This document shows, piece after piece, positions 1 through 40,490 of a stretch of DNA of 40,490 nt. A program made the position numbers and the translations under genes. Under the pieces are notes generated by a model. The model was given only the letters and a program-made list of their open reading frames with translations. It was not told where the DNA came from and made no database searches. Source of the stretch: Nitrosopumilales archaeon (GTDB lineage: Archaea > Thermoproteota > Nitrososphaeria > Nitrososphaerales > Nitrososphaeraceae); contig JBIQJB010000020.1 of assembly GCA_044507735.1 (NCBI GenBank), positions 1-40,490 on the forward strand. Reading direction: 5' to 3'. The stretch's first letter is position 1; every line of letters begins with the position of its first letter.

Positions 1-1
1 T

Positions 2-54
2 GAAAAAAGCTAGGACAGTCCTAGCTTTACGCATTACCCTAAGTTAACAGAGCC
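2..54 (+). repeat. Left copy of a 53-bp terminal inverted repeat containing a 23-bp palindrome (6..28)
   Basis: gaaaaaagctaggacagtcctagctttacgcattaccctaagttaacagagcc is the exact reverse complement of 40438..40490. Its core aaagctaggac-a-gtcctagcttt is an 11-bp dyad with a 1-nt spacer. Confidence 0.97.
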
Positions 55-119
55 GAGTTTATACACAAAAAGGATAAATAGTAATGCAATTATAGCGACT
101 TAGGTGTGCATGAGGGATA

Positions 120-917
120 ATGGACTATAAAGCATATGCACTAATGGCTATATTAATGGCATCTGTTGCATCCGTTGCACTCGTTGGCGCAGCGTATGCA
201 CAGTCAGCAGCACTGACAGTACAGACAGACAAGAACAGCTACACCTCCGGCGAAGACATTACTATTACCGGTCAGGTGGAATCAGCAGCCAGCCAGATAA
301 TTCTGATCCAAGTTCTTGACCCACAAGGGAACCGCGACAGGATTGATCAGGTTCAAGTGGCCGCAGATGGATCATTCACGTATACATTCCGCGCTGGTGG
401 ACTGATGAACACTGACGGCACATACAGGGTAGTGGTAGGCTCTGGAAGTAGAACTGCAGAGACAACATTCCAGTTTACTGCGGGCGAACAATGGAGAACA
501 ATCAACGTAAACATCGGTGGAGAAAACCACCAGATTCAATACATGATAACTGGCGCAGGCAACCGCCTCGACAGGATCACAGGCGATGTCACTACAAAAT
601 CGTTCCTTGCTGAGCTTACAGCACAGTCTGCAGGAACCCTGTCACTGAGATTCAACGAAAGCATCTTTGACGCAGATTCGGAGTTCACAGCATTCGTAGA
701 CGAAGTGGCGTTTGACAAGCCTCTGCCAGCAGGCCCAGGTGCAACGAACACGCTCCGCATTGACTTTGATGCAGGCACATCACAGATCGAGATCATTGGT
801 GACCGCATCATCCCAGAGTTCGGCGCAATCGCTGCAATCGTACTGGCTGTGGCAATCGTCGGAATCATCGTGGCAACTGCAAGGTACGGCAAGTTCAACT
901 TCACTCCAAGGCTATAA
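120..917 (+). CDS. Secreted surface protein with PEFG-CTERM sorting domain and Ig-like N-terminal domain
   Basis: N-terminal signal peptide (..AAYAQ), TDKNSY..GEDITITG Ig-like start, and C-terminal IIPEFG + hydrophobic helix + basic tail (RYGK), the thaumarchaeal PEFG-CTERM pattern. Confidence 0.9.
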   Translation: MDYKAYALMAILMASVASVALVGAAYAQSAALTVQTDKNSYTSGEDITITGQVESAASQIILIQVLDPQGNRDRIDQVQVAADGSFTYTFRAGGLMNTDGTYRVVVGSGSRTAETTFQFTAGEQWRTINVNIGGENHQIQYMITGAGNRLDRITGDVTTKSFLAELTAQSAGTLSLRFNESIFDADSEFTAFVDEVAFDKPLPAGPGATNTLRIDFDAGTSQIEIIGDRIIPEFGAIAAIVLAVAIVGIIVATARYGKFNFTPRL

Positions 918-953
918 GAAAAAAGCAATAGCCTTTTTTCCTTCTTTTTATTG
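918..953 (+). terminator. Putative oligo-T terminator between the PEFG-CTERM gene and the convergent tRNA
   Basis: gaaaaaagcaatagccttttttccttcttttta immediately after the stop codon. Confidence 0.5.
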
Positions 954-987
954 ATTGATCAGAAGCTACCGAAAGGTATTGCAAAAA

Positions 988-1094
988 TGGGGCCTTCGGA
1001 GGGATTTGAACCCTCCTCAAGCGGTTTCTGCCGAAAAGTTTCTTGAGAAACCGGCCACAGCCGCCTATACTGACCAGGCTATACTACGAAGGCC
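988..1094 (-). tRNA. tRNA-His(GUG) with a 29-nt intron at 37/38 (1026..1054), encoded G-1 and CCA
   Basis: Minus strand: acceptor GCCTTCG/CGAAGGC, anticodon stem GGCGG/CCGCT with loop CT-GTG-G|A, T-arm GAGGG-TTCAAAT-CCCTC, 3' C-CCA. The exon-intron junctions form a bulge-helix-bulge (GG|C, CUGU/GCAG, AA|A). Confidence 0.95.
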
Positions 1095-1134
1095 GCCAGA
1101 AAATTTGCATTCTCTACAGTATATAATCGTTCGA

Positions 1135-1962
1135 TCATTTTCCAGGCAAGATGCCCAGTCGGATGGTTTCTACGCCCAAATCCTCCAGCCGGTCTGCCAG
1201 GCCATTCATCCCTATCGAGTCGCCTGCGAGATGCCCCATGACGATCAGATTGCGGTCACGGAGCTGGCTGTCTTCTCTAAGCTTTGTCAGCTCACCATGG
1301 TCAACGTGCAGATAGATGACCGTGGAGACGCCGTGTTGCATATAGGCCTTCGCGATGCCGTACCCGCCGTTGGTTCCTGCAGCTACCACCAACGCCCAGT
1401 GTCCGGCCTTGTTCTTTTCACTGCCCAGCTTTACTTCCACCCTTGTGGCGGCCTTCCTAAACTCAGGGATCTTCTCTATCGATTTGACAATGTCGGAAAC
1501 ATGTTCTGTCTTGCCAGACTTGATCGCCTTCAGTATTACCTGTCGCATGTACTCGTCACACGGCTGATGGACATTGACGAGCGGCATGCCAAGTACTCTT
1601 GCCGCCCCAACAATATCGCCATAAATTTCAGCGTGATTGCGAGTGGCGACCCGTTCCTTGAGCCTTGCAACTGCGTCTCTTGCAACTTTTTTGGGCACGC
1701 CATGTTCCACCATGAATTCCACGTGCCTGTCAAACACCTTGTAAAAGTTGACATGGGCAACCCCTATCGGATGGTGGGCGATCACCGCATCGCATTGAAG
1801 TTGTCTTGCGAGCATCAGCTCAGCAGTCCCCACGTCGATCGCGACGAGCACTTTGTTGATGTTCTTTCCCCTTACATGCACGGCGCTGTCCGCAGGAATT
1901 TTCTTCCAGCCCGCAAGCTCGAGCCCAATTTTCATGATCGTTTCGGTGTTAATGGCGGCCAT
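1135..1962 (-). CDS. NIF3-like dinuclear metal-centre protein
   Basis: VAIDVG, IAHHP, VHQPCD and GHLAGD metal-ligand motifs typical of the NIF3/YbgI fold. Confidence 0.75.
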   Translation of the reverse strand: MAAINTETIMKIGLELAGWKKIPADSAVHVRGKNINKVLVAIDVGTAELMLARQLQCDAVIAHHPIGVAHVNFYKVFDRHVEFMVEHGVPKKVARDAVARLKERVATRNHAEIYGDIVGAARVLGMPLVNVHQPCDEYMRQVILKAIKSGKTEHVSDIVKSIEKIPEFRKAATRVEVKLGSEKNKAGHWALVVAAGTNGGYGIAKAYMQHGVSTVIYLHVDHGELTKLREDSQLRDRNLIVMGHLAGDSIGMNGLADRLEDLGVETIRLGILPGK

Positions 1963-2025
1963 GGCTTTCAGTCTGCTCAGTGCAAAATTTAAATCTGATG
2001 TGCAAGTCCTTGCAGGTGAAAAAGC

Positions 2026-3066
2026 ATGAGCTGCTCAGACGAGCACGTGTCGCATTCAACCGATGACAACAACTTGATCCAGATCACACCCCAGCTCAAG
2101 GCAAGGCTGCAGAAAGCCAAATACGGTGTTTACAATCATTCTGCAGTCGAGCTATGCCACTGGACCAAAAAGTCGTTTGCAAACGAGGGCAGCTGCTACA
2201 AGCACAAATTCTATGGCATTTCGACCCATCAGTGCATGGAGATGACGCCGGCCGCCATGAACTGCGAGAACAGGTGCATTTACTGCTGGCGGCCAACCGA
2301 GTTTTACGACACTCTGGAGATGCCAGAGGAGCTGGTTGACGAGCCGGATGTCATTGTACAACGGCTCATGGCTGAGCGCAAGAAATTGATTAACGGCTTT
2401 TACGGTCATGCCAAGAACGACAAGAAGAAACTAGACGAGTCTCTCCTGCCAGCACACTATGCGATTTCTCTGTCCGGCGAGCCGACTATGTATCCCAAAT
2501 TGCCCCAGCTGATAAAATACTTGAAGTCGCTCAAGGCTACAAAATCGATATTCCTTGTAACAAACGGACAGGAGCCGGAGATGCTAAAGAGGCTGGAAGC
2601 AGAGGATGCTCTGCCCACTCAGATCTACCTCTCTACCAACGCCTCAAACAAGAAGATGTTCCACCAGATCAACAGGCCTATGCACAAGGATGCATGGGAG
2701 AGGTGGTGGGAGAGTCTTCGTTTCCTTGCAACTGTCAATACAAGGACTGTGCTTAGGATGACGCTGATTAGAGGCTACAACGACAGCGCAGATTTTGTTG
2801 GCGAATTCGCTGAAATGATGGCACAGGGAAATCCTCACTTCATCGAGCTAAAGTCATACATGCATATAGGGATGTCAAACCGCCGGCTGGAACAAGACCA
2901 AATGCTAGAGATGTACGAGGTAAGGGATTTTGCAGCAAAGCTGTGCAAGAAAATGCCATCATTTAGCGTCATGGACGAGAGCGAGATTTCAAGGATAGTG
3001 GTTCTGCAGAATCAAGCGCGATATGTTGACAGGTGGATTAAGGAATATATCGCGCAAACCCACTAA
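2026..3066 (+). CDS. taw1: 4-demethylwyosine synthase (radical SAM, TYW1/Taw1)
   Basis: HSAVELCHWTKK, CYKHKFYGI, CENRCIYCWRP (CxxxCxxC), ISLSGEPT, FLVTNG. Confidence 0.93.
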   Translation: MSCSDEHVSHSTDDNNLIQITPQLKARLQKAKYGVYNHSAVELCHWTKKSFANEGSCYKHKFYGISTHQCMEMTPAAMNCENRCIYCWRPTEFYDTLEMPEELVDEPDVIVQRLMAERKKLINGFYGHAKNDKKKLDESLLPAHYAISLSGEPTMYPKLPQLIKYLKSLKATKSIFLVTNGQEPEMLKRLEAEDALPTQIYLSTNASNKKMFHQINRPMHKDAWERWWESLRFLATVNTRTVLRMTLIRGYNDSADFVGEFAEMMAQGNPHFIELKSYMHIGMSNRRLEQDQMLEMYEVRDFAAKLCKKMPSFSVMDESEISRIVVLQNQARYVDRWIKEYIAQTH

Positions 3067-3101
3067 CTCGCTTCGCGCCAGGGCCGGTTGAGCTGATGGT
3101 T

Positions 3102-3659
3102 CTACAGCGCAGAGCCGCGGGTTGATTGATACCACAATGCGAACTTGTCAAGGGCAGCCCTTCTGTGAGAGTAATCGTTCTTCTTGTCTCCTAGCTCCGC
3201 AAACGTCAGTTCAACGCCAGCAGGAATAAAGATTGGGTCATATCCCCAGCCGCCTTCTGCTATTTTCTCAGCTATCCTGCCATCGACGCGGCCTTCTGAA
3301 ATAGACAGGCGGGTGCCATCATAGAACGCAATGAGGGAGCGGAATGACGCGCTTCTGTCGGGCGAACCATCCAACAGCTTCATGATACCCCTGTTCCCAA
3401 GAGTCTTGAAAGCATGAGATGAATATTGGCCGGGAAAGCCCTTCAGTGCATCAATAAATAGGCCATCATCTTCCACTATGACAGGCCGGCCAACCTGCGA
3501 GAAGGCGCTCTTGGCTTTTTCTCTTGCAATCTCTTCAAGCGAGTCTGACTGTATCTCGACGAGGTTCACTTGAGCAAAGTCGACAGGTATGTTGTGCATT
3601 GCTAGTACTGACTGAACTTCAAAGAACTTGTTCTGGTTAGTGCTTGCAAAGGTCACCAA
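3102..3659 (-). CDS. rdgB: Non-canonical purine NTP pyrophosphatase (RdgB/HAM1)
   Basis: STNQNK, EIQ, EDDGLFIDALKGFPG, GWGYDPIF, SHRRAA motifs. Confidence 0.95.
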   Translation of the reverse strand: MVTFASTNQNKFFEVQSVLAMHNIPVDFAQVNLVEIQSDSLEEIAREKAKSAFSQVGRPVIVEDDGLFIDALKGFPGQYSSHAFKTLGNRGIMKLLDGSPDRSASFRSLIAFYDGTRLSISEGRVDGRIAEKIAEGGWGYDPIFIPAGVELTFAELGDKKNDYSHRRAALDKFALWYQSTRGSAL

Positions 3660-3692
3660 GCATTACTGGAAAAGGTGACTGGCTTTTTTATA

Positions 3693-4646
3693 CTATGGTT
3701 TATGGCTCTTGTAGATCACAAACCCAAGTCCGGCCGCGATCACAGAAGATGCAATGATTGCACTCTGTATCTGCAGCATCTGCGCAGACGAGAATGCTTC
3801 ATCGTATGGCTGCATGGAAAGCATAACCCAAGTGGCACCAGGCATCTGGACAGGGCTGTATGCGATGTACATTTGAACTCCATCATGCATTTCGATTCTT
3901 GATCCGCTGTTGCCCGCAAGCGCGTCTGCATAGCTCTGCAGGTCAGAGAGGTTTTCATCCGCAGATACCAGTGCACTGGAGGGTACAACCTCGTGCTCGT
4001 TCTGGTCGATGTAGATCACCCTCCCGCTGTATTCTGGTCCAAGCAATTCGTCCGCTCGGCTATTAAGCGCCTTAAGGTTCATGATTGCTATCGAGACGCC
4101 GGCCAGCGTTTTGTCATCGTGATAAACCGGCACGGCCAAAGCTGCCGCACTTGCTCCTGTTGCCGCCGAAATGTATACTTCGCCGAGGTATGGCTTGCCG
4201 CGGGCCACTGCGCCCTGAAAATAGTCGCGTGAGATAAAGTTCGTGCTGGTGAGGTTGAGCTGCCTCGAATATGGCTCCTCAAGGTACATGTCGCCGTTTG
4301 GTAGTATAAACCCGATACCGTCAATATCAGGATTGGAGGCAAGAATGTCTTTTGCTACCTGTCTTATTCCAATTGCCGCGTTTTCAGGCACACCTTTGTT
4401 TTCTGCGCTCACCAGATGCGCTTCTGACGTGTCCTTTAACTGCGGCAGCTTCGCCGTAACATCCATAATCGATGCAACGGCTGACATCCTGCTGCCAGTG
4501 TCGATTGCAACATGCCTAACATTGTCTTCGATATTCCTTGCTGTCTTATCCAAAGTCTGAATTTGGGCCATGCCGGCATACGACAAGGTCCCGATCGCAA
4601 TCACTACAGCAACAGCATAACACGCCAGTGTCGTCGCCTTTCCCAT
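3693..4646 (-). CDS. Membrane protein with an extracytoplasmic dCache-type domain and no cytoplasmic output domain
   Basis: N- and C-terminal hydrophobic helices flank RDYFQGA..YLGEVYISAATG..AVPV and YIAYSPV..TWVML Cache-like motifs. The protein ends 5 aa after TM2. Confidence 0.75.
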   Translation of the reverse strand: MGKATTLACYAVAVVIAIGTLSYAGMAQIQTLDKTARNIEDNVRHVAIDTGSRMSAVASIMDVTAKLPQLKDTSEAHLVSAENKGVPENAAIGIRQVAKDILASNPDIDGIGFILPNGDMYLEEPYSRQLNLTSTNFISRDYFQGAVARGKPYLGEVYISAATGASAAALAVPVYHDDKTLAGVSIAIMNLKALNSRADELLGPEYSGRVIYIDQNEHEVVPSSALVSADENLSDLQSYADALAGNSGSRIEMHDGVQMYIAYSPVQMPGATWVMLSMQPYDEAFSSAQMLQIQSAIIASSVIAAGLGFVIYKSHKP

Positions 4647-4682
4647 GATAAGGTTGTCAGAACTGTCTTCTATAATAGTGTG

Positions 4683-5294
4683 TCACATTACGCGGGCGTA
4701 CCTGCCGCGCTGCTCTATCTCTCTTACGTTTTCCAGTATCTGATCTGTCCTTCTTTTGCCTACCACACTGACGTAGCCCTCCACAAACCGCGGAAAAGCC
4801 TTTTTGACTGAAATGTGTGCGCTGGCTAAAACCTCCTTTATCAGCCGGATATCTGTCGCCATGTCTTCCGTGCGCTCTGAATAGTAAGAGAGACCAAAGT
4901 CAAGCAGTACAAGTTTATTGTTTGCAATAAAATTCGACGTGGTCAGGTCACCGTGGATGATGTTGTTTGCATGAAGCATTGCCGCATAGCGACCCATTTC
5001 ATAACAGAGGTCAGGAGTTAGAACGTCCCGGGCGTTGTCACCCTGCACAAATTCCATTATTATTTCTGCGTTCACGGGGTCGACGAAATATACAAACGGA
5101 GACGTGACGCCGGCAGACTTGGCGGCTGACATAAAGCTGGCTTCATGAACAGTCCGCTGCTTTCTGATTGCCTGATCAAGCTCACGGTGCCTGTAGGGCT
5201 TGGGTGTCCTCACCTTGGAGACTGCAGGCCGGCAGCCCCATTCCACCAGGTAGATGTCTGCCTCCGCCCCCCTTTTCACCAGCCTTGGCTGCAA
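4683..5294 (-). CDS. bud32: KEOPS complex kinase/ATPase Bud32
   Basis: RGAEA, KVRTPKPYRH, HGDLTTSN, LDFGL, R.RYA C-terminus. TTG start. Confidence 0.93.
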   Translation of the reverse strand: MQPRLVKRGAEADIYLVEWGCRPAVSKVRTPKPYRHRELDQAIRKQRTVHEASFMSAAKSAGVTSPFVYFVDPVNAEIIMEFVQGDNARDVLTPDLCYEMGRYAAMLHANNIIHGDLTTSNFIANNKLVLLDFGLSYYSERTEDMATDIRLIKEVLASAHISVKKAFPRFVEGYVSVVGKRRTDQILENVREIEQRGRYARVM

Positions 5295-5327
5295 TAGTAA
5301 TATACCCTCTGGAATGGAGATAAAAAC

Positions 5328-5648
5328 GTGGTGAGTTTCGAGCCGGCGGCAGATGAAAAAGTAATCCTTGACGAGGATTGCGCAGAGGACAAGCTCAGAA
5401 GTGGCATACTCGTGCTAACAGACAAGAGGCTTGTCTTCCAAAAGACTCAAGGAAGGATGGCCACCCTCTCAAAGAAAGAGGGAGAAGTCGTGCTCGACAT
5501 CCCGCTTTCAAAGATATCGTCGGTCAGAGCAGAGGGCTTTTTGGTGAAAAAATTGGTCATCGTTTCTGACGGGCAGACCTACAAGTTTGGTGTGTTTAGC
5601 AATAGCAAGTGGGAGCGCCAGATAAAGCAGCTTACTGGCGCCAGCTGA
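5328..5648 (+). CDS. Small PH-like/GRAM-like domain protein
   Basis: G.LVLTDKRLVF...IPLSKISSV...L.I...YKF...W pattern of PH-fold domains. Confidence 0.6.
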   Translation: MVSFEPAADEKVILDEDCAEDKLRSGILVLTDKRLVFQKTQGRMATLSKKEGEVVLDIPLSKISSVRAEGFLVKKLVIVSDGQTYKFGVFSNSKWERQIKQLTGAS

Positions 5649-6639
5649 CATCGACTGTATCAAGACGCCAAGACTGGCGAACGGTGGAGTCCCTTATTTT
5701 GACTTGCTTTTTTGTGGCCTGGTAGTCCTGCAGGGCTGTCCATGCGATCTGCGCGCCGTTGTCCCCGGCAAATTTCAATGGGCATGTGAAGAGCTTGGCG
5801 CCGTGCCGGCTGCATGCAGATTCTAGCATTTCTGCTAGCCTCTTGTTTGCTGATACCCCTCCCACTATCATCATCTCTTTTTTGCCCGAGAATGACAGGG
5901 CACGCTCGACAACTTCCGCGAGCATCGCAAACGCCGTCTCTTGCAGAGAGTAGCACACATCAGAGGTGGCAGAAGGTGAAACTCCAGTAGCTTTTTCAAC
6001 GAGCTTTGTCGCAGCCGTCAGCAGGCCTGAAAACGACACGTCGTTGCCTTTGACGACATATGGAAGCTGCATGTACTGTCGCGTGGATTGCGTTGCCAGC
6101 TGCTCGATTCTACCGCCGCAGGGGGAAGCAAAGCCAAGTGCCCTTCCAAACTGGTCAAGCAGTTGCCCTACGGTGATGTCCAGTGTCTCCCCAAAGACGC
6201 GCCACCTGCCGTGAGAGAAGGCGAGTATCATGGTGTGGCCTCCAGAAACCAGCAAGACAAGAGGATCGGAAGCACCTGTAAGCATTGATCCAAGTTCTAG
6301 GTGCCCGAGTGCGTGGTTGACAGGCACCAACGGCTTCTTGTAAAAGCCGGCTACCGTCCTAGCCACCACCGCTCCAACCCTCAGGCATGGTCCTAGTCCC
6401 GGTCCTGCAGAATAGCCCACGATGTCCACGTCCTTCATGGTGATGCCAGCAGACTGCAAAGATTTGTGAAAAATGTCAGAGCTGACCTCTGCATGATGGC
6501 GCGATGCTTCTCGAGGGTGTATGCCGCTTCCCTCTGGCGCCCTGTAGACGTCGCGCTCGTCAGAGAGGATCTTGCCCGCAGAATCCACTATAGAGCAACC
6601 AAAAGTATGAGCGGTGCTTTCCACCCCAAGACACAGCAT
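5632..6639 (-). CDS. kae1: tRNA t6A37 threonylcarbamoyltransferase Kae1
   Basis: LGVESTAHT, GPGLGPCL, VNHALGH, VSGGHT, GETLD, GGVSAN, DNGAQIA. Confidence 0.96.
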   Translation of the reverse strand: MLCLGVESTAHTFGCSIVDSAGKILSDERDVYRAPEGSGIHPREASRHHAEVSSDIFHKSLQSAGITMKDVDIVGYSAGPGLGPCLRVGAVVARTVAGFYKKPLVPVNHALGHLELGSMLTGASDPLVLLVSGGHTMILAFSHGRWRVFGETLDITVGQLLDQFGRALGFASPCGGRIEQLATQSTRQYMQLPYVVKGNDVSFSGLLTAATKLVEKATGVSPSATSDVCYSLQETAFAMLAEVVERALSFSGKKEMMIVGGVSANKRLAEMLESACSRHGAKLFTCPLKFAGDNGAQIAWTALQDYQATKKQVKIRDSTVRQSWRLDTVDVSWRQ

Positions 6640-6651
6640 TTTGCTACTATA

Positions 6652-7854
6652 CTATCCCCTGCTTGTCGCTGACACTATTTTAATCACGTCTCCGCTCTTT
6701 AGTTTGTGGTCGGCCCCTATCCTCTGCTTTGTCCTTGCATCAACAGCATACAAGAAGCCTTTTGCAAGATCGGCGTGAACAGTCTGTGCCAGATCCCGGG
6801 CAGTAGATCCCTCAGGAAGCAGCTTGACATCAGGCAGGACATTGCCTTTCTTGTCGGCAAGCTTGAACTCGTCCTCAACAGGGTAGACCGCGATCATGCG
6901 TAACAGCTTGAAGCAGGCGATGTTTATCGCTTCCTGCACACCGGTCGATCCATATTTTTGTATCAGGGTCCTGACGATGTCTAGCGCCTTTTGCTGCTGT
7001 GCATTCAGCGTCACGTTTGGCTTGACGTCAAACGAACTATCTCCAGGCAGGTAGTGGAGAATCCCCTTTTTTGACGCCTTGCGAAGGAGCGCCTCAGCCT
7101 CGGACGCACAGGGAACCACTTCAAGGCCGGCTGCCTTTATTTTCTCAATGTTGGCTTCTGACGACGGCAGGTCTGCCTTGTTGGCAGCTATCACAAATGG
7201 CTTGGCCTTTGTCCGCAATATTTTGCAGAATGAGCGTATGTCTTCTTCAGTCCAGCTCACCGGTTTTTTCATCGCAAGTCCAGATGCGTGTATCGCGGCT
7301 GCTATCACAGGCTCACCTATCCCAAGGCCAGACAGGCGCTTGGCAAGCATCTGTTCCAGCTTTTGACCCAGCCCTTCGGCTTCCCTCGCATTCTTGCCCC
7401 AGTCCCGACTGACAAGGGCCGCAAGCCACAGGTCAAACTCTTCTTCGACGAATTCAATATCATACATCGGGTCGCCCGTGCCTGCAGGAACCGGCCTGCC
7501 TTGGCTGTCGGTAGAACCCGAAGCATCCACCACGTGTATAAGTACGTCAGCCTGCCTCGCATCGTCGAGAAACTTGTTGCCCAGCCCCTTGCCCGCATGG
7601 GCACCTGGAACCAGACCTGCCACATCAACCAGCTTGACGGGGATGAACCTGTTGCCGTCGATGCACATCGAATGCACAGGGTTATCCTGGACGCCAAATT
7701 CGCGGCAGACGCATTTTACCCTTGCAAAGGCCACTCCCACATTAGGCTCAACAGTAGTAAATGGGTAATTGGCTGCAGGAACGGCAAGCTCGGTTGCCGC
7801 ATTGAAGAATGTGGACTTGCCCACGTTGGCCTTGCCAATCAACCCGATGATCAA
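6652..7854 (-). CDS. Obg-family YchF/Ygr210-like ATPase/GTPase with C-terminal TGS domain
   Basis: GKANVGKS, NYPFTT, DVAGLV, GLGNKFL, NKAD, and a C-terminal TGS-like segment. Confidence 0.9.
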   Translation of the reverse strand: MIIGLIGKANVGKSTFFNAATELAVPAANYPFTTVEPNVGVAFARVKCVCREFGVQDNPVHSMCIDGNRFIPVKLVDVAGLVPGAHAGKGLGNKFLDDARQADVLIHVVDASGSTDSQGRPVPAGTGDPMYDIEFVEEEFDLWLAALVSRDWGKNAREAEGLGQKLEQMLAKRLSGLGIGEPVIAAAIHASGLAMKKPVSWTEEDIRSFCKILRTKAKPFVIAANKADLPSSEANIEKIKAAGLEVVPCASEAEALLRKASKKGILHYLPGDSSFDVKPNVTLNAQQQKALDIVRTLIQKYGSTGVQEAINIACFKLLRMIAVYPVEDEFKLADKKGNVLPDVKLLPEGSTARDLAQTVHADLAKGFLYAVDARTKQRIGADHKLKSGDVIKIVSATSRG

Positions 7855-25583: not shown

Positions 25584-25592
25584 TAACACATA

Positions 25593-33119: not shown

Positions 33120-33335
33120 ATGGGCCTTTTCCACCGAGAGAAGACTGAATGTAGCGAATGTGGCGCGAGATTTGCAAGCTATGATGAGCTCGTCCAGCAT
33201 GCCAGAGAAGCCCACAAGATCCGCCCTGTCAGATGCAGTAGCTGCGGCAGGTTTTTCCTGCACGAGAAAGACAGGTTGCACCACGTAAAGGAAGAGAAGG
33301 AGAAAAAGTTGGACGCCCGCAGGCACAGGTTTTAA
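33120..33335 (+). CDS. Small C2H2 zinc-finger protein
   Basis: CSEC-x12-H-x4-H complete finger, then CSSC-x12-H with the last ligand absent. tttataat promoter upstream. Confidence 0.8.
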   Translation: MGLFHREKTECSECGARFASYDELVQHAREAHKIRPVRCSSCGRFFLHEKDRLHHVKEEKEKKLDARRHRF

Positions 33336-33362
33336 TGAATCTGCAAGGATGATCGCTATAGA

Positions 33363-33776
33363 ATGGATTTTGCGGTGAGGATAGGGGCAACGAAGGAGCG
33401 CACAATAACCGTCGACTCGAATCAGACGACAAGCTTTCTCTGGGAAGGTGAAAACGTCCTCTCTACCCCCTCGATGATATTGGAGATGGAGGAGACGTGC
33501 AGGCTCTTGCTCAAAGAACAATTTTTGCGCGACCCCGACTGGGACTCGGTCGGTACGATCGTAGATATCAAGCACCTTGCAGCCACACCTGTGGGAGCAG
33601 AGGTATACCTCAAGGCCAAGGTGGTCTCGGTCGATGGGAGACGTGTCATGTTCGAGGTGGAAGCGAGGGACAAGCTTGAGAAGGTGGGCGAAGGCAAACA
33701 CGAGAGGTTCATAATAAACATCCCCCGTTTCAGGGCAAAATTCAACGAGAAGCAAAAGCAATTGGGGACGCAATGA
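33363..33776 (+). CDS. Hotdog-fold thioesterase, FlK-like
   Basis: VLSTP.MI..ME (Thr, Glu), SVGT.V.IKHLAATPVG (His), G.G.HER. Confidence 0.88.
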   Translation: MDFAVRIGATKERTITVDSNQTTSFLWEGENVLSTPSMILEMEETCRLLLKEQFLRDPDWDSVGTIVDIKHLAATPVGAEVYLKAKVVSVDGRRVMFEVEARDKLEKVGEGKHERFIINIPRFRAKFNEKQKQLGTQ

Positions 33777-33838
33777 GTCAAAATCTATAAAAGACGCATG
33801 GGGAATCGTGTAATTATTCTAATAGGTGATATGCAAGT

Positions 33839-35491
33839 ATGGCATCAATTCAAACAACTGCTGGCGGAATGCCAGTTTTGATTTTGAAGGAAGGAACCAA
33901 GGAATCAAAGGGCAGAGAAGCCCAGAAGAACAACATCACTGCTGCAAAGCTTATCGCGGAAATTGTAAAGACCAGCCTAGGTCCAAGGGGCATGGACAAG
34001 ATGCTTGTGGACTCGCTGGGAGATGTGACAATAACAAACGACGGCGCCACCATTTTGAAGGAAATTGACGTGCAGCACCCAGCTGCGAAAATGATGGTAG
34101 AAGTCGCAAAATCTGTCGACAACGAAGTTGGTGACGGCACCACGTCGTCGGTTGTATTTGCCGGCGCCCTGCTCGAAAAGGCTGAAGAGCTGGTGAACAA
34201 GGACGTGCACCCGTCTGTCATTGTGGATGGCTACAACGCAGCCGCCGAGCAAGCACTGAAGATATTGGAAAGGATTGCAGTCAAGGTCGACATCTCTGAC
34301 AAGGACATGCTGATGAAAATCACAAGAACCAGCATGGATTCAAAACTGGTATCAGAAGACAGTCCGACGCTGGCACAGATCGTCGTTGACGCGGCAAAGC
34401 AGGTCGCAGAAAAGACAGACGCAGGTGGCTACAGAGTAGACCTTGACGACATTAAAGTTGAGAAGAAGGCAGGAGGCTCGATGCGCGACACAAAGCTGAT
34501 CAGGGGAGTTGCCCTTGACAAGGAAGTCGTGCACGCAGGCATGCCAAAGAGGATTGAAAATGCCAAGATCGCATTGATCAACTCTGCTCTGGAAATCGAA
34601 AAGACGGAAATGAGCGCAGAGATCAGGATTTCGGACCCGCAGCAGATGAAGATGTTCCTCGAAGAGGAAAACCGCATGCTCAAGTCCATGGTCGACAAGA
34701 TAGTACAGAGCGGCGCAAACGTCCTCCTGTGCCAGAAGGGCATCGACGACATTGCGCAGCACTACCTTGCAAAGGCCAACATTCTGGCAGTAAGGCGCGT
34801 AAAGGAATCAGACATGACCAAGATGTCCCGCGCAACTGGTGCCAGGATTGTCAACAACCTTGACGACCTCACAGCAGACGATCTTGGAAGCGCAGACCTA
34901 GTCGAAGAGCGCAAGATAGAGACTGACAAATGGGTATTTGTCGAAGGGTGCAAGAACCCGAAATCTGTCACAATCCTGATCAGGGGCGGCTCTCAGAGGG
35001 TTGTCGACGAGGCTGACAGGTCATTGCATGACGCACTAATGGTCATGAAGGATGTGTTTGAGCATCCGGCCATAGTCGCAGGCGGAGGGGCACCAGAGGC
35101 GTACATCGCAAACGAACTGAGACAGTGGGCCAGCAGCCAAGAAGGCCGCGCCCAGCTGGCGGTGCAAAAGTTTGCCGATGCTCTGGACGTAATCCCGCTC
35201 AGCCTCGCAGAGAATGCAGGCATGGACCCGATAGACACCATGACAGAGCTTCGCGCAAGCCAGAGCAAGGGATCCAAATGGACAGGTGTCGATTGCAGGA
35301 ACACAAAGGTGACTGACATGTACAAGCAGAACGTGCTGGAGCCTGTTGTGATCAAGCAGCAGATAATCAAATCTGCTACAGAGGTCGTGTCGATGATCCT
35401 CAGGATCGACGACGTGATTGCGGCAAGCAAGTCCAAGATGCCGTCAGGTCCTCCAGGCGGAGGAGGCATGGGCGGCATGGACATGGAGTAA
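33839..35491 (+). CDS. ths: Thermosome (group II chaperonin) subunit
   Basis: LGPRGMDKML, TNDGATIL, GDGTTS, AGGGAPE, LRIDD, GGMGGM tail. TATA ctataaaa near 33785 and SD ggtga at 33825. Confidence 0.97.
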   Translation: MASIQTTAGGMPVLILKEGTKESKGREAQKNNITAAKLIAEIVKTSLGPRGMDKMLVDSLGDVTITNDGATILKEIDVQHPAAKMMVEVAKSVDNEVGDGTTSSVVFAGALLEKAEELVNKDVHPSVIVDGYNAAAEQALKILERIAVKVDISDKDMLMKITRTSMDSKLVSEDSPTLAQIVVDAAKQVAEKTDAGGYRVDLDDIKVEKKAGGSMRDTKLIRGVALDKEVVHAGMPKRIENAKIALINSALEIEKTEMSAEIRISDPQQMKMFLEEENRMLKSMVDKIVQSGANVLLCQKGIDDIAQHYLAKANILAVRRVKESDMTKMSRATGARIVNNLDDLTADDLGSADLVEERKIETDKWVFVEGCKNPKSVTILIRGGSQRVVDEADRSLHDALMVMKDVFEHPAIVAGGGAPEAYIANELRQWASSQEGRAQLAVQKFADALDVIPLSLAENAGMDPIDTMTELRASQSKGSKWTGVDCRNTKVTDMYKQNVLEPVVIKQQIIKSATEVVSMILRIDDVIAASKSKMPSGPPGGGGMGGMDME

Positions 35492-35545
35492 GAAAGAAGG
35501 AATCCCTCTTCTTTCTCCTTTTTACCTTTTTTCGATCTTTTTCAA
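35492..35545 (+). terminator. Pyrimidine/T-rich terminator after the thermosome gene
   Basis: ctcttctttctcctttttaccttttttcgatctttttc following the stop codon. Confidence 0.5.
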
Positions 35546-35578
35546 ACTACATATACAACCTAGCCATTTTGAGCATAC

Positions 35579-36616
35579 GTGACATTAATCGAAAAGCTGC
35601 GGCACCTTGTCGTCGGGGGCTCGATAGTTGTAATGCCCGACTTTTTCGTCGACCGCATAATACGGCTAGAATCAAAAGAGAAATTCTTTGACGCGCTGAC
35701 AGAAAAAGCAAAGCGAGGCGGCGGAAGCGTCAGAGGGGTGCCAACAGTCGACGTCAAGGGGGGCAATGCAGTCAATGTGGCTTATTGCCTTTCAAAGCTT
35801 GGAGTCAAGGTCTCATTGTTCACGGTGGCAGACGAAATAGGCGCTGCCATGATACGGCAGGCATTCTCTCAATTTGGCGAGAGGGTGACGCTGAGGATAA
35901 GCACGGGCAAGAGCGGCCTCACCACCTCGTTTGAATTCCCGCATGGAGAAACAAGAGTAAACGTCATGGTTAGTGACATTGGCGACAACGACAGCTTTGG
36001 CCCAGAGAAGATAGGATCAGAAGCCGACAGAGCCATTCTGAAAAATGCCGACGGAGTCGTGATAACCAACTGGGCAAGCAACAAGAAGGGCACCGAGCTT
36101 GCCGAGTTTGCCTTCAGGAATTCACCAAGCGCCTTCCACTTTATCGATCCTGCAGACATTGAAAATAGAAAGCAAGACTTTTGCAACTCACTGGCCAAGC
36201 TTGCAGACATAACCGACTGTCTGAGCATAAATGAAAATGAATGCAACTCGCTTGCAGACGCACTGGGGATTGCGCATCCGCTTGGAGCCAGCTTTGATGC
36301 AAATGAAATCAAGGCAGCTGCCAAGATGGTTGCGCAAAGAGTAGGGATCAGCACCGATCTGCACACAAGAATTGGCTCTGCGTGGTCGAACGGAAAGGAA
36401 AGTGAATTTGTGCATGCGATAAGAGTAGAGGCAAGGACTCTCACAGGTGCTGGCGACTCGTGGGATGCAGCAGACATTGTAGGATACCTTGCAGGCCTTG
36501 ACGCTCGCGAGAGGCTCTTGTTTGCAAACTGCTGCGCGTCGCTCTATGTAAGAGACCCGCAGGGCGAGCCTCCTGTCATGAACAAGGTCTTCGAGTTATT
36601 GGAAAGGGTGCAGTAG
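35579..36616 (+). CDS. PfkB/ribokinase family carbohydrate kinase
   Basis: GGNAVNVAY.L.KLG, NENE, TGAGDSWDAA. Confidence 0.9.
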   Translation: MTLIEKLRHLVVGGSIVVMPDFFVDRIIRLESKEKFFDALTEKAKRGGGSVRGVPTVDVKGGNAVNVAYCLSKLGVKVSLFTVADEIGAAMIRQAFSQFGERVTLRISTGKSGLTTSFEFPHGETRVNVMVSDIGDNDSFGPEKIGSEADRAILKNADGVVITNWASNKKGTELAEFAFRNSPSAFHFIDPADIENRKQDFCNSLAKLADITDCLSINENECNSLADALGIAHPLGASFDANEIKAAAKMVAQRVGISTDLHTRIGSAWSNGKESEFVHAIRVEARTLTGAGDSWDAADIVGYLAGLDARERLLFANCCASLYVRDPQGEPPVMNKVFELLERVQ

Positions 36617-36631
36617 TGCTAGTAGCGACAA

Positions 36632-36952
36632 TCAGGCAAGCTTGCTGGCATCAAACGGTTCCCTGATCGATCGCAGCATGTAGAGCATCTTGCGGATGTA
36701 GCGCTGCTTTGACGGGACCTCGACCAGCTTGCGCTGGTAAAAGTCGATCAAATGATCGATAATGCAGGTGCCGTCCTGTGATTCTGACAGATTACTCAAT
36801 ATCTGCGAGTACCAATACTCCACCAGGGCATCCTCGCCGTGTTTTTCCTCGAGCTCGACCAGAAATGCAAAGTTCGAATGGCATCGGCGACACAACCCAT
36901 AGTGAGCCTTGGCATACGATCTACTTTCAAAATGGCCGCACTTTGCCCTCAT
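36632..36952 (-). CDS. Hypothetical protein with N-terminal CxH/CxxC Zn-binding motif
   Basis: KCGH...GLCRRCH followed by a helical domain. Confidence 0.7.
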   Translation of the reverse strand: MRAKCGHFESRSYAKAHYGLCRRCHSNFAFLVELEEKHGEDALVEYWYSQILSNLSESQDGTCIIDHLIDFYQRKLVEVPSKQRYIRKMLYMLRSIREPFDASKLA

Positions 36953-37031
36953 TCGTCATGGCATACTATGCAGAAACCCTATTTGAACCCCGACGGGTAT
37001 TTTAAATGACAAGAGTGCCCTAGACTTTGCC

Positions 37032-37271
37032 ATGATAGAGGCAGAGGATGCGGTCAGGATCGTCGATACAGTCGCCAAGAACCTGATTGGGGTATCAAGA
37101 AATAGTTCCAATTTTGAAAGGCTGCCAGACACATTTTGGGGGTATTTCGCAAGAGGGCATGACGCAAAAGGCAGGTTTGGAGTGATCGTCACCTATTCTG
37201 AAAACGGCAGCGACGTTGACGAGCTGATAAGGATGTACGAACAGTGGGTCGCAAAGAACAAGTCTAGATGA
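37032..37271 (+). CDS. Hypothetical protein
   Basis: 79-aa ORF with protein-like composition. ttttaaa TATA about 27 nt upstream. Confidence 0.7.
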   Translation: MIEAEDAVRIVDTVAKNLIGVSRNSSNFERLPDTFWGYFARGHDAKGRFGVIVTYSENGSDVDELIRMYEQWVAKNKSR

Positions 37272-37566
37272 CCTGCTCTATGACCCATTCTCGGAATTTT
37301 GCAATTCCAAAATCCTCCGACTGCTTGACGAACGCCGGATCCTTGGTTCTCCACTGGTCCTGTGGGATGCCGTCAAAGAATTCCTGCATGCACAAGATGA
37401 ACCGGAATCGCAGGTTACGAGGGTTTTCCGAGATCCCGTATCGGTAGAGAATGGCCGCTATTTTTCCAAAGGCTTCGTCGTAGTTCCGCTTGAACCCCTC
37501 GATCTTGAAGGTTTCTTCCAGAATCCGGGTTATCGCGTCCAGGTCGTCGCGGAGTGTGATGATCAT
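37264..37566 (-). CDS. Hypothetical protein, translationally coupled to the MazG-like gene
   Basis: 100-aa ORF whose ATG overlaps the upstream TGA (ATGA). Confidence 0.7.
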   Translation of the reverse strand: MIITLRDDLDAITRILEETFKIEGFKRNYDEAFGKIAAILYRYGISENPRNLRFRFILCMQEFFDGIPQDQWRTKDPAFVKQSEDFGIAKFREWVIEQVI

Positions 37567-37817
37567 GGCTTGGACTTGAGCATCTCCAACTTTCTACCAT
37601 ATACGGCGCTCATGTTGGAATCGAGGTCAAGATTGTATTTCGTGGCCAAGTAATACATAAGCGCGGCTGATTCGGTTATCTCCATCTTGGCGTGCTCGAC
37701 ATTATTCTTTTCCATTGCAAAAGCGATCTCGCCGATTTCTCTTACCAGGTGGATAAATGCTGCAGACTTGTCGTCGCCAAATTTCTTGTTGTAGTAATCA
37801 ACTGCTATAGAGCTCAT
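37563..37817 (-). CDS. Single-domain MazG-like NTP pyrophosphohydrolase
   Basis: HLVREIGEIA...EITE..LMYYLA....LDL....K, resembling the ExxE/ExxD all-alpha NTP-PPase pattern. Confidence 0.7.
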   Translation of the reverse strand: MSSIAVDYYNKKFGDDKSAAFIHLVREIGEIAFAMEKNNVEHAKMEITESAALMYYLATKYNLDLDSNMSAVYGRKLEMLKSKP

Positions 37818-38435
37818 GTGCAGGACAATTAGGGATCAGGTGGTTATAAGAATTAGAGGCGCGGTATTTGCTTGTGCCAGCTTATGGCAAGACTGCAGCC
37901 TGTACGGTGATTGGCAGTTGGCCCAAGTGTATCTCGTGTCTTGCGCAGTTCATCCCTTGAGATCCAATTTTCCAACTGCAAGCTGACGACAGACAACACA
38001 CCCTCCAAGAATACATCGGCCTATTGCTCTGCGTTGGCAGAGACACTGTAGCATCCCCGTCTATTCCAGAAGCTTCTGGAGCTGCCTTCTTGCCGTTTCT
38101 GATGTGTCCTTACGTCAAATCTTACCGCTGTCCGACCTGTGCGATGGTACTGGGGTTTCGACTCTTGCCGTTCTTTTTTTGGTATCTTCTATCCCCCTCC
38201 TCCAGATCCATTCACTTCTCATTTCGTTCTTGAGACACACGCTATCAGGGGTTGGCTCCAAGCCGATTATGACGGATGACGAAAGGGTGCCATACTATGT
38301 TATAGATATCTAAGGTGAGAATGATGCTTCCCAGAGACTGTCAGAAGAAGTCAATGGCTGATAACCATACTGCTCAGAGGTTAGATTCGGCAGGTTATCG
38401 GTGCCCTTATAAAGTACGACCTTAAATCCATTCCC

Positions 38436-38534
38436 ATGGACGTACTCTCAGAAGACAAATGCAATTGCCAGCAATGCATGGATGAACAGGCAGAGATGTG
38501 CCTGGCTAACCACTGCGAGTGTTGCAAGCACTAA
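38436..38534 (+). CDS. Unannotated 32-aa Cys-rich, metallothionein-like peptide
   Basis: MDVLSEDKCNCQQCMDEQAEMCLANHCECCKH*: 7 Cys and 2 His. Strong TATA ttataaa at 38407..38413, consistent with a leaderless transcript. Confidence 0.7.
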   Translation: MDVLSEDKCNCQQCMDEQAEMCLANHCECCKH

Positions 38535-38585
38535 GGACGGCCACATCCATGCGGCAATTTTTTCCCAAGCAAGTCCTGCCACTCT

Positions 38586-38651
38586 CAGGCAGCGCTTCTT
38601 GAACCTCTTGCCGCTGCTGCATGGGCAGGGGTCATACCCTCCAACTTTTTC
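38586..38651 (-). pseudogene. Remnant of a SEC-C motif protein
   Basis: Reads EKVGGYDPCPCSSGKRFKKRCL (SEC-C consensus K.GRNDPCPCGSGKKYKKCC). It is preceded directly by an in-frame TAA and has one Cys replaced by Arg. Confidence 0.6.
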
Positions 38652-38760
38652 TTATCTAAATTTGCAGAAGTTGACGCCCGCAGGATAGGTACCTAACAGC
38701 AAGATCAAGCATTCTGGCAGCCAAAAGGGGTATTAAGGGATTCACGATATAACACACGGC

Positions 38761-39612
38761 TTGTCCGGATCAGCAGAATTTGTGATCAGAACTATGAGGC
38801 AGTCTGACCTAGACGTCGCTATTCAGTGGGCCTCCTCCGAAGGATGGAACCCTGGCCTGAACGATGCAGAGACATTCTACCATGCAGATCCGTCTGGGTT
38901 CTTTGCAGGCTTTGTTTCAGGGGTTCCGGTTGCAAGCATTTCATCAGTCGCGTATGACAGCTCATTTGGATTCTTGGGGCTGTACATAGTGAAGCCCGAG
39001 TACAGGGGACGCGGTTTTGGAATAAAGATCTGGGAAAGAGCGCTTGATTATCTTGGTGATAGGAATATTGGGCTTGACGGCGTAATCGCAAGACAGAAAG
39101 ACTATGAGAAATACGGCTTCAAATTCGCTTACCGGAACTTACGGTTTGCAGGTAGCTTCACATGTCCGACGAGGTCGAAAAATCTAGTCGACTTGAAGAA
39201 TCTTGAAACAAGCAAGATTGCAGAGTACGACGTCCAGATGTTTCCTACAAGGCGCGACAATTTCATTTCAAGATGGGTCAAGCAGAAGGGAAGTAAGGCT
39301 CTGGGCCATCTGGCAAACGGCAAGCTTGTGGGATACGGAGTCCTGCGCCCGTGCCGGATAGGCTTTAAAGTAGGGCCGCTTTTCGCAGACAGCAGAGAAA
39401 TCGCACAGGAATTGCTGTCTGGCCTGGCAAGCCATGCTGGAAAGGACAGAATTTTCATCGATGTTCCAGAGCCAAACAAGCAGGCCCTTGATCTTGTGAA
39501 AGGAAATATGATGATGGAAAAGATCTTTGAAACAGCGCGTATGTACAACAAGTCCATTCCAGATCTGCCGCTAGATCGGATCTATGGTGTGACCACGCTG
39601 GAGCTCGGATGA
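38761..39612 (+). CDS. Two-domain GNAT N-acetyltransferase (YitH-like C-terminal domain)
   Basis: EGWNPG, FLGLYIV.PEYRGRGFG, GLDGV, KVGPLFAD, IDVPEPN, FETARMY, TTLELG. Confidence 0.9.
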   Translation: MSGSAEFVIRTMRQSDLDVAIQWASSEGWNPGLNDAETFYHADPSGFFAGFVSGVPVASISSVAYDSSFGFLGLYIVKPEYRGRGFGIKIWERALDYLGDRNIGLDGVIARQKDYEKYGFKFAYRNLRFAGSFTCPTRSKNLVDLKNLETSKIAEYDVQMFPTRRDNFISRWVKQKGSKALGHLANGKLVGYGVLRPCRIGFKVGPLFADSREIAQELLSGLASHAGKDRIFIDVPEPNKQALDLVKGNMMMEKIFETARMYNKSIPDLPLDRIYGVTTLELG

Positions 39613-39613
39613 T

Positions 39614-39860
39614 CTGAGCGAATTGTAGAGTTCGGCCGCTTTGGCGCCAACATCTTTGGCCTCCATTATGATGGTGTCCGCAAAAAACGCGTCTGCGCCG
39701 GCCTTTCTCAGGTACTGCACGTCTGCAGGCTTTGAAATGCCACTTTCGCTTGTCTGCGAGCCTGTCTATGCTTCCCCCCCTGCCAAGTTTTTGTCAAAGA
39801 TAGTCTTGACGAGTAGGATGCAATCTGCGCCTGCCTTTTCCCCGGCGTCAATTTTGAAAA
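39614..39860 (-). pseudogene. trpC: Degraded indole-3-glycerol-phosphate synthase fragment
   Basis: KIDAGEKAGADCILLVKT...then SESGISKPADVQYLRKAGADAFFADTIIME: the TrpC GAD.ILL, ESGI and GAD.FL.G..IM motifs. There is no start, a frameshift/stop at the G7 run (39774..39780) and the middle of the gene is missing. Confidence 0.75.
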
Positions 39861-40135
39861 AATTCTAAATTCTTGGGCTTTAGATATCCAAGGTAAAAGA
39901 GTGCGGGATTATAGTTTAGCACTCTTGTTCACACCTATGAGATAATCAATTATGTTATTATTAAAAATTCTTCGATCATTACTTTGACTCAGAAAAATCG
40001 TCATTTCTGAATGTTTTCAGCACCAAGAACGAGTGCCAAATTTACGAATTACAGCCTTTATTGATGCATGTTTTCGAACATCATTTGCTTATTTCAGATT
40101 TTTGCAACAAAGCAGTTAATGAGTATCCGAATTAA

Positions 40136-40402
40136 CTAACCCAGAACTTTCTCTAGCTCGTCAAGTCTCTTCATCCCTTTTTCTGTTATTGTTAATTTTT
40201 TGAATCTTCCATCAACATATAGATCGACAAACTGCTTGCTATGGAGATATTGGACGTACTTCTGAAGTGTCTTTGGGTTAACATTAGCCTTCTGCTGAAG
40301 ATGACTTATGCTTATTTTGCCTTCCTTTAGGATTCTGAGGAATCTCATCTCCATGTATGGATTGATTCTTTTCTGCTCCAAAGATTCCCGTGCGACGATC
40401 AC
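40136..40402 (-). CDS. Small winged helix-turn-helix transcriptional regulator
   Basis: ISHLQQKANVNPKTLQKYVQYL...FV...ITEKG..L, an archaeal wHTH pattern. GTG start 35 nt from the terminal repeat. Confidence 0.8.
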   Translation of the reverse strand: MIVARESLEQKRINPYMEMRFLRILKEGKISISHLQQKANVNPKTLQKYVQYLHSKQFVDLYVDGRFKKLTITEKGMKRLDELEKVLG

Positions 40403-40437
40403 AAACGCTACTATTTTACTTTTTTTTCAGATCACGA

Positions 40438-40490
40438 GGCTCTGTTAACTTAGGGTAATGCGTAAAGCTAGGACTGTCCTAGCTTTTTTC
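40438..40490 (-). repeat. Right copy of the 53-bp terminal inverted repeat (palindrome 40464..40486)
   Basis: Exact reverse complement of 2..54. Confidence 0.97.

Follow-up and report, generated by a model that had tools for sequence, protein, structure and literature searches.

A perfect 53-bp inverted repeat at the two ends of a 40-kb archaeal contig is the left end of a multicopy IS6-family insertion sequence

Why should a contig full of archaeal housekeeping genes begin and end with the same 53 nucleotides in opposite orientation? In the window studied here (the whole stretch of DNA analysed, 40,490 nt), bases 2-54 (+) recur at 40438-40490 (-) as a perfect reverse complement, with 0 mismatches in 53 nt, just as an earlier note on this DNA had reported. 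When the window was shuffled 100 times with its dinucleotides preserved, 0 matches turned up, even at a tolerance of 3 mismatches. A repeat search stretches the end pair to 82 nt at 85%; true identity stops at base 54/40438, and the flanks differ from there. The window is the complete contig C6 (G000:C6:1-40490) of a 55-contig MAG, so the 53-nt repeat does reach the contig ends, and the earlier remark that the match runs to the window edges holds as well. The earlier note saw in this geometry a possible invertible, phase-variable segment, and it listed two MITE/IS ends among the alternatives. It is the latter that proved to be the correct reading. The 53-mer is the left (IRL, transposase-proximal) end of an insertion sequence (IS) of ~720 bp that belongs to the IS6 family and is present in multiple copies. 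The terminal repeat of C6 is an ordinary break of a short-read assembly at IS copies and not a dedicated genetic switch. The features of the window on which this reading is built are as follows.

1..54, minus strand: outermost 53-54 nt of IS copy A, IRL side; the body extends leftwards off the contig
6-28: palindrome with a 10-bp stem, copy A
39-54: 16-bp terminal inverted repeat (TIR), copy A
55..62, plus strand: 8-bp target-site duplication GAGTTTAT of copy A; 8/8 match, adjoins the IRR tip at the start of C17
120..917, plus strand: PEFG-CTERM surface-protein gene (TIGR04296, 31 bits, cut-off 25)
40139..40354, minus strand: small winged-helix (HTH_45 / Sso10a-like) gene (PF14947 HTH_45, 37.7 bits, cut-off 25.5)
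40430..40437, minus strand: 8-bp target-site duplication of copy B, TCGTGATC read outward from the IS; 8/8 match, adjoins the IRR tip at the start of C15
40438..40490, plus strand: outermost 53 nt of IS copy B, IRL side; the body extends rightwards off the contig
40438-40453: TIR of copy B
40464-40486: palindrome of copy B

The DNA between the two IS tips has the content that had been described for it. Housekeeping genes are present (thermosome, Kae1/TsaD, RIO/Bud32-like kinase, ribosomal protein S19e, XPB-Bax1), along with cobalamin and archaeosine/queuosine genes, and the Pfam scan of the 49 window ORFs found no transposase, integrase or recombinase family. The family matches listed above also agree with the earlier naming of the two edge genes; the ATG of the PEFG-CTERM gene has the IS end 65 bp upstream, that of the winged-helix gene 83 bp upstream. 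Scans of the window for tRNAs and Rfam families gave no match, so the 53-nt repeat represents neither a tRNA nor an ncRNA gene. Assessed as a structured RNA, the palindrome reaches z-scores of about -2 on either strand, and its stem is only partly kept among relatives of the element.

The earlier note had itself suggested counting the 53-mer genome-wide, a multicopy IS being named there as an outcome that speaks against inversion. The count came to nine places and to exactly such an element. The IRL tip lies at five contig ends (both ends of C6 plus C20, C2 and C27) and also inside C17, C1, C38 and C18, beside homologous elements of ~720 bp, which makes at least nine IRL ends; the opposite (IRR) tip lies at another five contig ends (C15, C17, C25, C26 and C40). 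Five IRL and five IRR contig ends are what is expected for about five collapsed identical copies, the interior of which is missing from the MAG. The copies that were assembled, three full and one partial, are all diverged. The two copies that flank C6 are inverted with respect to each other and their tips are identical over 53-54 nt each. These identical tips, together with loose ends in the run data (see below) that enter transposase coding sequence, suggest that both are full-length and identical throughout.

The anatomy of the element is that of an IS6 member. Copies in C17, C1 and C38 measure 716-720 bp, within the IS6 length of about 700-890 bp. The 16-bp TIR reads GGC[T/G]CTGTTAACTTAG, and its two ends (GGCTCTGTTAACTTAG vs GGCGCTGTTAACTTAG) are identical at 15/16 positions, in keeping with the 15-20 bp, the GG tips and the cTGTt motif of IS6 TIRs. 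The transposase start codon follows ~9 nt past the 53-mer in full copies and would thus fall beyond the edge of C6. Each of the four copies assembled in this genome is frameshifted; an intact transposase was sought in its contigs and not found, and no match attains the cut-off of NF033587 (IS6 transposase). The ORF fragments of the four copies match this model colinearly, in fragments only, and Pfam recovers from them only PF13610, sub-threshold. In relatives the DDE transposase of 213 aa is intact. One such ORF matches NF033587 over positions 2-196 of 202 (E 4.5e-29) and PF13610 with 40.4 bits, over the cut-off of 27. The relative's ORF and the colinear fragments together identify an IS6/IS240-type DDE transposase as the only gene of the element.

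Comparison with an excerpt of the IS6-family review PMC7986276 brings out likenesses as well as differences. That text gives 700-750 bp for the archaeal IS6 clades Ai and Aii, close to the 716-720 bp found here. Further traits shared with the family as described there are a single transposase ORF (213 aa here) that begins near the left end, TIRs of ~16 bp with GG tips and a CTGTT motif, target duplications of 8 bp, and the occurrence of some copies without direct repeats. In contrast, the relatives' transposase is distant from the NCBI model (101.6 bits, under the curated cut-off of 125), and, unlike the elements treated in the excerpt, ours has a palindrome between the TIR and the start codon, kept in some relatives only. 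Among archaea, the excerpt names members from the Euryarchaeota and Crenarchaeota and mentions no Nitrososphaeria. The palindrome had also suggested an IS200/IS605-TnpB element (hairpin end plus guide RNA); this candidate was dropped, as TIRs, 8-bp duplications and an IS6 transposase were found.

The target sites link each end of C6 to another contig. Among the 25 possible IRL x IRR pairs of contig ends, two share their flanking 8-mer at 8/8 positions, namely C6-left with the start of C17 and C6-right with the start of C15. Direct 8-bp target duplications, as expected of IS6, also occur inside the assembly: the internal copy of C17 has TAATAATC on both sides (8/8), the C1 copy matches at 7/8 and the C38 copy has none. 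The other IS-tipped contig ends have no 8-mer partner (best 6/8, C27/C26), which leaves 3/5 IRL ends and 3/5 IRR ends unpaired. Such unpaired flanks are compatible with replicative (cointegrate) transposition and do not prove it. For the left site there is evidence from relatives, too: in 9/11 relatives' loci the C17 flank runs directly into the C6-left flank, and all six loci that were displayed base by base carry the 8-mer once, i.e. an empty C17|C6 site. The C6|C15 junction on the right has the 8-mer as its sole link. C15:55-1654 was found in 0/40 same-genus genomes, and the last ~600 bp of C6 returned only dispersed-repeat matches and no empty site for copy B among 40 same-genus genomes. 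The start of C17 encodes RpoH/RpoB; the ORFs at the start of C15 show no family match.

The length of the repeat has its own explanation. Many contig-end pairs of the MAG share an overlap of exactly 55 nt, the mark left by a k=55 graph, and the ~53-nt repeat length thus reflects the assembler k-mer. Taken together, these data make us confident that C6 is a normal stretch of Nitrososphaera-type chromosome lying between two opposite, near-identical IS6-family copies of ~720 bp, at which a k=55 assembly stopped. The IRL ends of both copies face inward to C6, and the true repeat is the entire IS. A k=55 de Bruijn assembly was unable to cross it, so contigs touching an IS copy end ~53-55 nt inside, producing a 53-bp "terminal inverted repeat". 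The 53-mer itself consists of the TIR followed by sequence that leads up to the transposase start, a putative promoter with a TATA-like box overlapping the palindrome. Both target sites were hit with an 8-bp duplication. On the left, the IS sits in the intergenic region that separates the divergent rpoH-rpoB operon (C17) and PEFG-CTERM gene; the right target lies upstream of the small winged-helix gene, adjoining strain-specific DNA (C15). The present order would then be rc(C17)-IS-C6-IS-C15. The earlier proposal that the assembly broke at a repeat present in two opposite copies is borne out by the IS tips at both ends of C6.

Sequencing runs bear on the same junction. C6 DNA is present in 20 runs from 8 studies, which are kept as Logan contigs (k=31) that also stop inside the IS. 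Logan contigs of X1 and X2 span the junction of IS tip and unique DNA (window 26-842 and 26-812, 0 mismatches); both runs are possible sources of the C6 DNA and not independent of the assembly. Over window 1-2500, the Logan contigs of X1, X2, X14 and X15 stop at base 26 inside the IS or offer loose ends only, those of X14 and X15 leave the junction uncovered, and neither an empty-site contig nor support for one or the other orientation of the segment was found in the four runs. The loose ends lead, somewhere in the sample, into the 5' part of the transposase coding sequence. The summed Logan depth over bases 1-84 is 29-37 times that of the neighbouring DNA.

Given two inverted IS copies, has the segment between them been turned around? 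Long identical inverted repeats around a chromosomal segment could support recA/RadA-type recombination, and by analogy C6 may resemble large inversions between inverted IS or rRNA copies, being likewise flanked by long inverted repeats. An inversion could be added to the IS reading in two ways, by homologous recombination over 720 bp or by the intramolecular replicative "trans" pathway of IS6. The latter is described in the excerpt of PMC7986276 and creates exactly an inverted segment bracketed by inverted IS copies, and the copies here are inverted and identical at both tips. The unpaired IRL and IRR ends would fit IS-mediated rearrangements elsewhere in the genome. By reasoning, two simple insertions, one insertion plus a trans inversion, and two insertions plus recombination all lead to the same ends, 8-mers and synteny. 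After a flip, however, neither edge gene would have a different 720 bp in front of it, and 40 kb of housekeeping genes would have been shifted without visible regulatory gain. We consider it rather improbable that the 40-kb segment is or was inverted, and equally so that the two copies make this block of core genes flip naturally in the population. If this were true, IS-driven chromosome rearrangement would be ongoing beside the RNA-polymerase operon of an ammonia-oxidising archaeon, and the same process would have left its scars in the unpaired IS flanks found elsewhere.

A programmed phase-variation switch, in which a site-specific recombinase would act on the 53-bp repeats, turn the segment around and thereby alter expression of the PEFG-CTERM or winged-helix gene, draws on geometry only, i.e. 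inverted repeats with outward-facing genes at both edges. Hin, Fim and the Bacteroides invertons use short repeats and a dedicated adjacent recombinase and flip 0.2-3 kb of promoter or gene part. It is in the geometry of inverted repeats around a segment that C6 resembles such invertible promoter or shufflon switches; unlike them, its repeat is a mobile element, it encloses 40 kb of core genes with no recombinase, and the local upstream sequence stays unaltered. A repeat that is the end of an IS found at nine genome places is not switch-specific, and a dedicated serine/tyrosine recombinase is absent among the window ORFs, so the earlier claim of an invertible phase-variation segment finds no support. 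Both genes keep their own upstream regions of 65 and 83 bp. With or without a flip, both also adjoin the same IS end (IRL), and an inversion therefore leaves the 720 bp upstream of each unchanged; the earlier idea that a flip swaps the flank context of the edge genes is right only for the DNA beyond the IS. Since the left site carries no IS in relatives, we are dealing with a recent insertion rather than with a conserved switch. We regard a switch as very unlikely. The same low probability goes to a composite transposon, with two IS copies mobilising the 40 kb as a unit. IS6-family elements do form pseudo-compound transposons (PMC7986276, excerpt), but such a unit would have one 8-mer on both outer flanks. 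Here the two outer 8-mers differ, each being matched by the 8-mer on the inner side of the same IS copy, the left junction preserves ancestral synteny (9/11), and the cargo consists of core housekeeping genes. An artefact of assembly or library (adapter, chimera, palindromic misassembly), or else the terminal repeats of a linear replicon or virus, might be suspected from a palindrome-containing repeat placed exactly at both contig ends. The same sequence, however, lies inside long contigs and in complete elements with target duplications, related elements occur in other genomes (see below), two runs, each a possible source of C6 DNA, show the junction in their Logan contigs, and the content of the contig is chromosomal and syntenic with relatives. 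This explanation, too, has hardly any likelihood left.

The IS reading is of use chiefly as a caution. Where a short-read contig begins and ends with a perfect inverted repeat about as long as the k-mer, the usual reason is that it lies between two repeat copies, and not that it is a special element. The 8-bp target duplications and 55-nt overlaps together offer a way to order MAG contigs (here C17-C6-C15-C40). The data also point to a recent IS insertion beside the rpoH-rpoB operon and to an active-looking IS6-family element in Nitrososphaera-type archaea, with about five identical copies here and relatives in many MAGs. Related elements occur in 7/24 same-genus genomes (a count that includes the unpublished G022) and at 52 loci, mostly in Nitrososphaera/Nitrososphaeraceae MAGs; the motif GGnnCTGTT lies upstream of the transposase match in 21/51 related loci.

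Our analysis identifies the terminal inverted repeat of this contig (C6) as an ordinary feature: the assembly broke at two copies of an IS6-family insertion sequence that lie in inverted orientation. Bases 2-54 are the reverse complement of 40438-40490, identical over 53 nt; a pattern search of the window allowing up to 3 mismatches returned exactly two sites, one at either end, and none in 100 dinucleotide-preserving shuffles. The perfect repeat described in the earlier note is thus real. Since the window is the complete contig (the assembly has 55 contigs and 2.33 Mb and is rated 97% complete), the repeat does run to both contig ends, and the suspicion that it might be longer holds in that the biological repeat is the whole insertion sequence (IS). 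The sequences of the two ends part ways past base 54 and before base 40438; an 82-nt arm at 85% identity from repeat finding was rejected as a gapless extension into unrelated flanks.

A search of the genome recovered the 53-mer at the C20 start and the C2 end (exact over 53 nt), at the C27 start (exact over the 47 nt present) and inside contigs C17, C1, C38 and C18 (94-98% identity). Homology among all copies stops at the boundary ...GAGCC, beyond which each has a different sequence, so the 53-mer behaves as the end of a mobile element. Querying with the C17 copy delimits a homologous unit of 716-720 bp. The assembled copies are:

C17:143827-144546, element, used as query
C1:36147-36862, element
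C38:10938-11653, element
C18:2-367, partial copy of the element

The other tip lies at five contig ends (C15 start, C17 start, C25 end, C26 end and C40 start). Five contig ends in the genome thus carry one tip and five the other, a tally that fits about five near-identical IS copies collapsed by the assembler. The ~720-bp body of the identical copies is absent from the bin, whose shortest contig is 2,651 bp. The earlier note, which proposed a possible phase-variation inversion, had itself named the end of a multi-copy IS as a finding that would refute it, and this is what the genome-wide search revealed.

When contig ends were compared all against all, many pairs proved to share precisely 55 nt end to end with 100% identity, which marks a de Bruijn graph with k=55. 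Contigs running into the IS carry 47-55 nt of it. The length of 53 nt is set by the assembler. The earlier suggestion that the assembly broke at a repeat present in two opposite copies is confirmed by the two inverted IS6-family copies, and the listed alternative of "two MITE/IS ends" was right as to the IS, the 53-mers being tips of a ~720-bp multicopy element.

The two tips, GGCTCTGTTAACTTAG and GGCGCTGTTAACTTAG, are identical at 15 of 16 positions as inverted repeats. The internal C17 copy has TAATAATC on both flanks, the 8-mers flanking the C1 copy match at 7 of 8 positions, and the C38 copy lacks a target duplication. All four assembled copies are frameshifted; their ORF pieces match NCBIfam NF033587 (IS6 family transposase) colinearly (2-57, 38-106, 77-123 and 114-178 of 202), and in a genome-wide search with this model they were the sole matches, none reaching the cut-off. 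Elements related to it, with 71-77% DNA identity along their full length, were present in 7 of 24 same-genus genomes, a count that takes in the unpublished genome G022, and in none of 16 genomes from other families of the order. Two of them, L011 (genome G006) and L013 (genome G023), have an intact 213-aa ORF. Against NF033587 the L011 protein aligns over 2-196 of 202 (E 4.5e-29; 101.6 bits, below the curated 125), and against Pfam PF13610 DDE_Tnp_IS240 it scores 40.4 bits, which exceeds the cut-off (27). Scanning species-representative genomes with it returned 52 loci, mostly in MAGs labelled Nitrososphaera or Nitrososphaeraceae, which also favours the earlier guess at the organism. In 21 of 51 of these loci the transposase match is preceded by a GGnnCTGTT tip at most 120 nt away. 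The excerpted text of PMC7986276 describes IS6 members as 700-890 bp long (700-750 in archaeal clades Ai and Aii), with target repeats of 8 bp and inverted repeats of 15-20 bp that have GG tips and a cTGTt motif. By that excerpt, the element agrees with the family in every hallmark readable from sequence (length, inverted repeats, 8-bp repeats). It is an insertion sequence of the IS6 family and seems to be an uncatalogued one that is common among Nitrososphaera-type archaea.

Read in transposase sense, the 53-mer consists of the 16-nt transposase-proximal inverted repeat (IRL), a spacer of ~10 nt, a palindrome and a T-run, and in full copies the transposase start codon follows ~9 nt beyond it. 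The palindromes are:

6-28, palindrome with 10-bp stem, left end
40464-40486, palindrome with 10-bp stem, right end

Relatives have a TATA-like motif ~30 nt ahead of the ATG, immediately in front of the palindrome's 5' arm or overlapping it. The 53-mer thus probably holds the transposase promoter, and the palindrome may serve as an operator or as a barrier to read-through from outside. Folding of the palindrome gives z-scores of about -2, and only some of the relatives keep the stem.

The sites of the two copies can be read from the DNA beside the tips. The genes at the contig edges are:

120-917 (+), PEFG-CTERM gene
40139-40354 (-), small wHTH gene

At the left end of C6 the IS tip adjoins the 8-mer GAGTTTAT, which recurs next to the opposite tip at the C17 start; at the right end the 8-mer is TCGTGATC (read outward), which recurs at the C15 start. 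These are the two exact 8/8 pairs among 25 possible pairings, with a chance of ~1 in 65,000 per pair, each. Partners were found for neither three of the five IRL ends nor three of the five ends with the opposite repeat (IRR), which may reflect IS-mediated rearrangements elsewhere or partners outside the bin. The left copy (copy A) lies 65 bp before the ATG of the PEFG-CTERM gene, and the C17 start encodes rpoH (Rpb5 C-terminal domain) and rpoB (Rpb2 domains) reading away from the IS, which places copy A between the RNA-polymerase operon and the PEFG-CTERM gene, in their divergent intergenic region. In 9 of 11 same-genus loci fetched with the C6-left flank, the C17 flank directly adjoins it; the other two (L022 and L029) gave no match to the C17 flank. 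In the six loci examined base by base, the 8-mer (GAGTTTCT or GAGTTTAT) is single and stands between both conserved flanks. Such a textbook empty site shows that copy A inserted recently and that the C17/C6-left adjacency is ancestral. At the right end no comparable empty site turned up: neither the last ~600 bp of C6 nor the first 1.6 kb of C15 was found in 40 same-genus genomes, where short dispersed repeats gave the only hits. The G+C content is 34.7% at this edge (39850-40437), 50% in C6 as a whole and 44.4% in C15, whose ORFs match no Pfam family; the edge and C15 look like a strain-specific island beside the right copy (copy B). The far end of C15 overlaps the end of C40 by 55 nt, suggesting the contig order rc(C17)-IS-C6-IS-C15-rc(C40). 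The 55-nt overlaps and the target duplications could scaffold this MAG further.

A phase-variation inversion of the segment is not supported by our data. As the earlier note stated, the window shows no transposase or recombinase: a Pfam scan of its 49 ORFs found no recombinase, integrase or transposase family. The relatives are IS-free at the left site, so the arrangement is not a conserved regulatory device. The swap proposed for the edge genes would take effect only beyond the IS, since the same IRL end adjoins both; after a flip, each gene would keep its native 65 or 83 bp upstream, followed by the IRL end and the whole IS, so that nothing would change locally. Recombination can occur between two identical inverted repeats of 720 bp. 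According to the excerpted PMC7986276, a further route to inversion is open to IS6 elements, namely replicative transposition in trans within one molecule. We nevertheless regard an inverted or flipping C6 segment as quite improbable. Three histories fit: two simple insertions, one insertion plus an inversion in trans, or two insertions followed by homologous recombination. Contig ends, 8-mer pairings and ancestral synteny come out alike in each; the histories differ only in which ends are joined via one physical IS copy, a link that a collapsed short-read assembly and k=31 contigs do not record.

A composite transposon is rejected too: it would need two equal outer 8-mers, but here the outer 8-mer on each side is the same as the inner one beside it, and relatives show the left junction to be ancestral. 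The assembly artefact also listed in the earlier note is ruled out by the copies with target duplications inside long contigs, by the related elements in other genomes and by Logan contigs of two sequencing runs (X1 and X2, possibly the source of the assembly), which span the IS-tip junction (window 26-842 and 26-812) with 0 mismatches. Their summed depth over window 1-84, which counts other organisms' copies too, is 738 versus a neighbouring depth of 20 in X1 and 911 versus 31 in X2. The preferred reading remains an assembly break at two inverted IS copies.

Elsewhere, C27 and C26, joined by a 55-nt end overlap (together ~39.8 kb, bounded by an IRL tip and an IRR tip), make a second ~40-kb block between two IS copies, in direct orientation; the 8-mers on its flanks differ (6/8 alike). 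At the C27 start, a 34-bp sequence duplicated in tandem (C27:48-115) immediately adjoins the IS tip. Just downstream of the wHTH gene, window 39985-40115 holds a ~125-bp dispersed repeat with copies at 69-75% identity in C2, C3, C29, C9, C22 and C17 and ten at 84-90% in the relative G047; it had no match in an Rfam scan and may be a MITE or a conserved small gene or RNA. A second short repeat (39892-39970; 35-80 nt), not a tRNA by tRNA scan, has matches of 95-97% in C10 and C27, 80% in C49, and 94-97% over 33-36 nt in the relatives G003 and G016. The 940 bp at 37818-38760 lack ORFs of at least 70 aa on both strands, matched nothing in Rfam and hold no sequence that is repeated in the genome. 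Finally, C7:9669-10257 is a paralogue of the PEFG-CTERM gene region, with 69% DNA identity to window 304-883.
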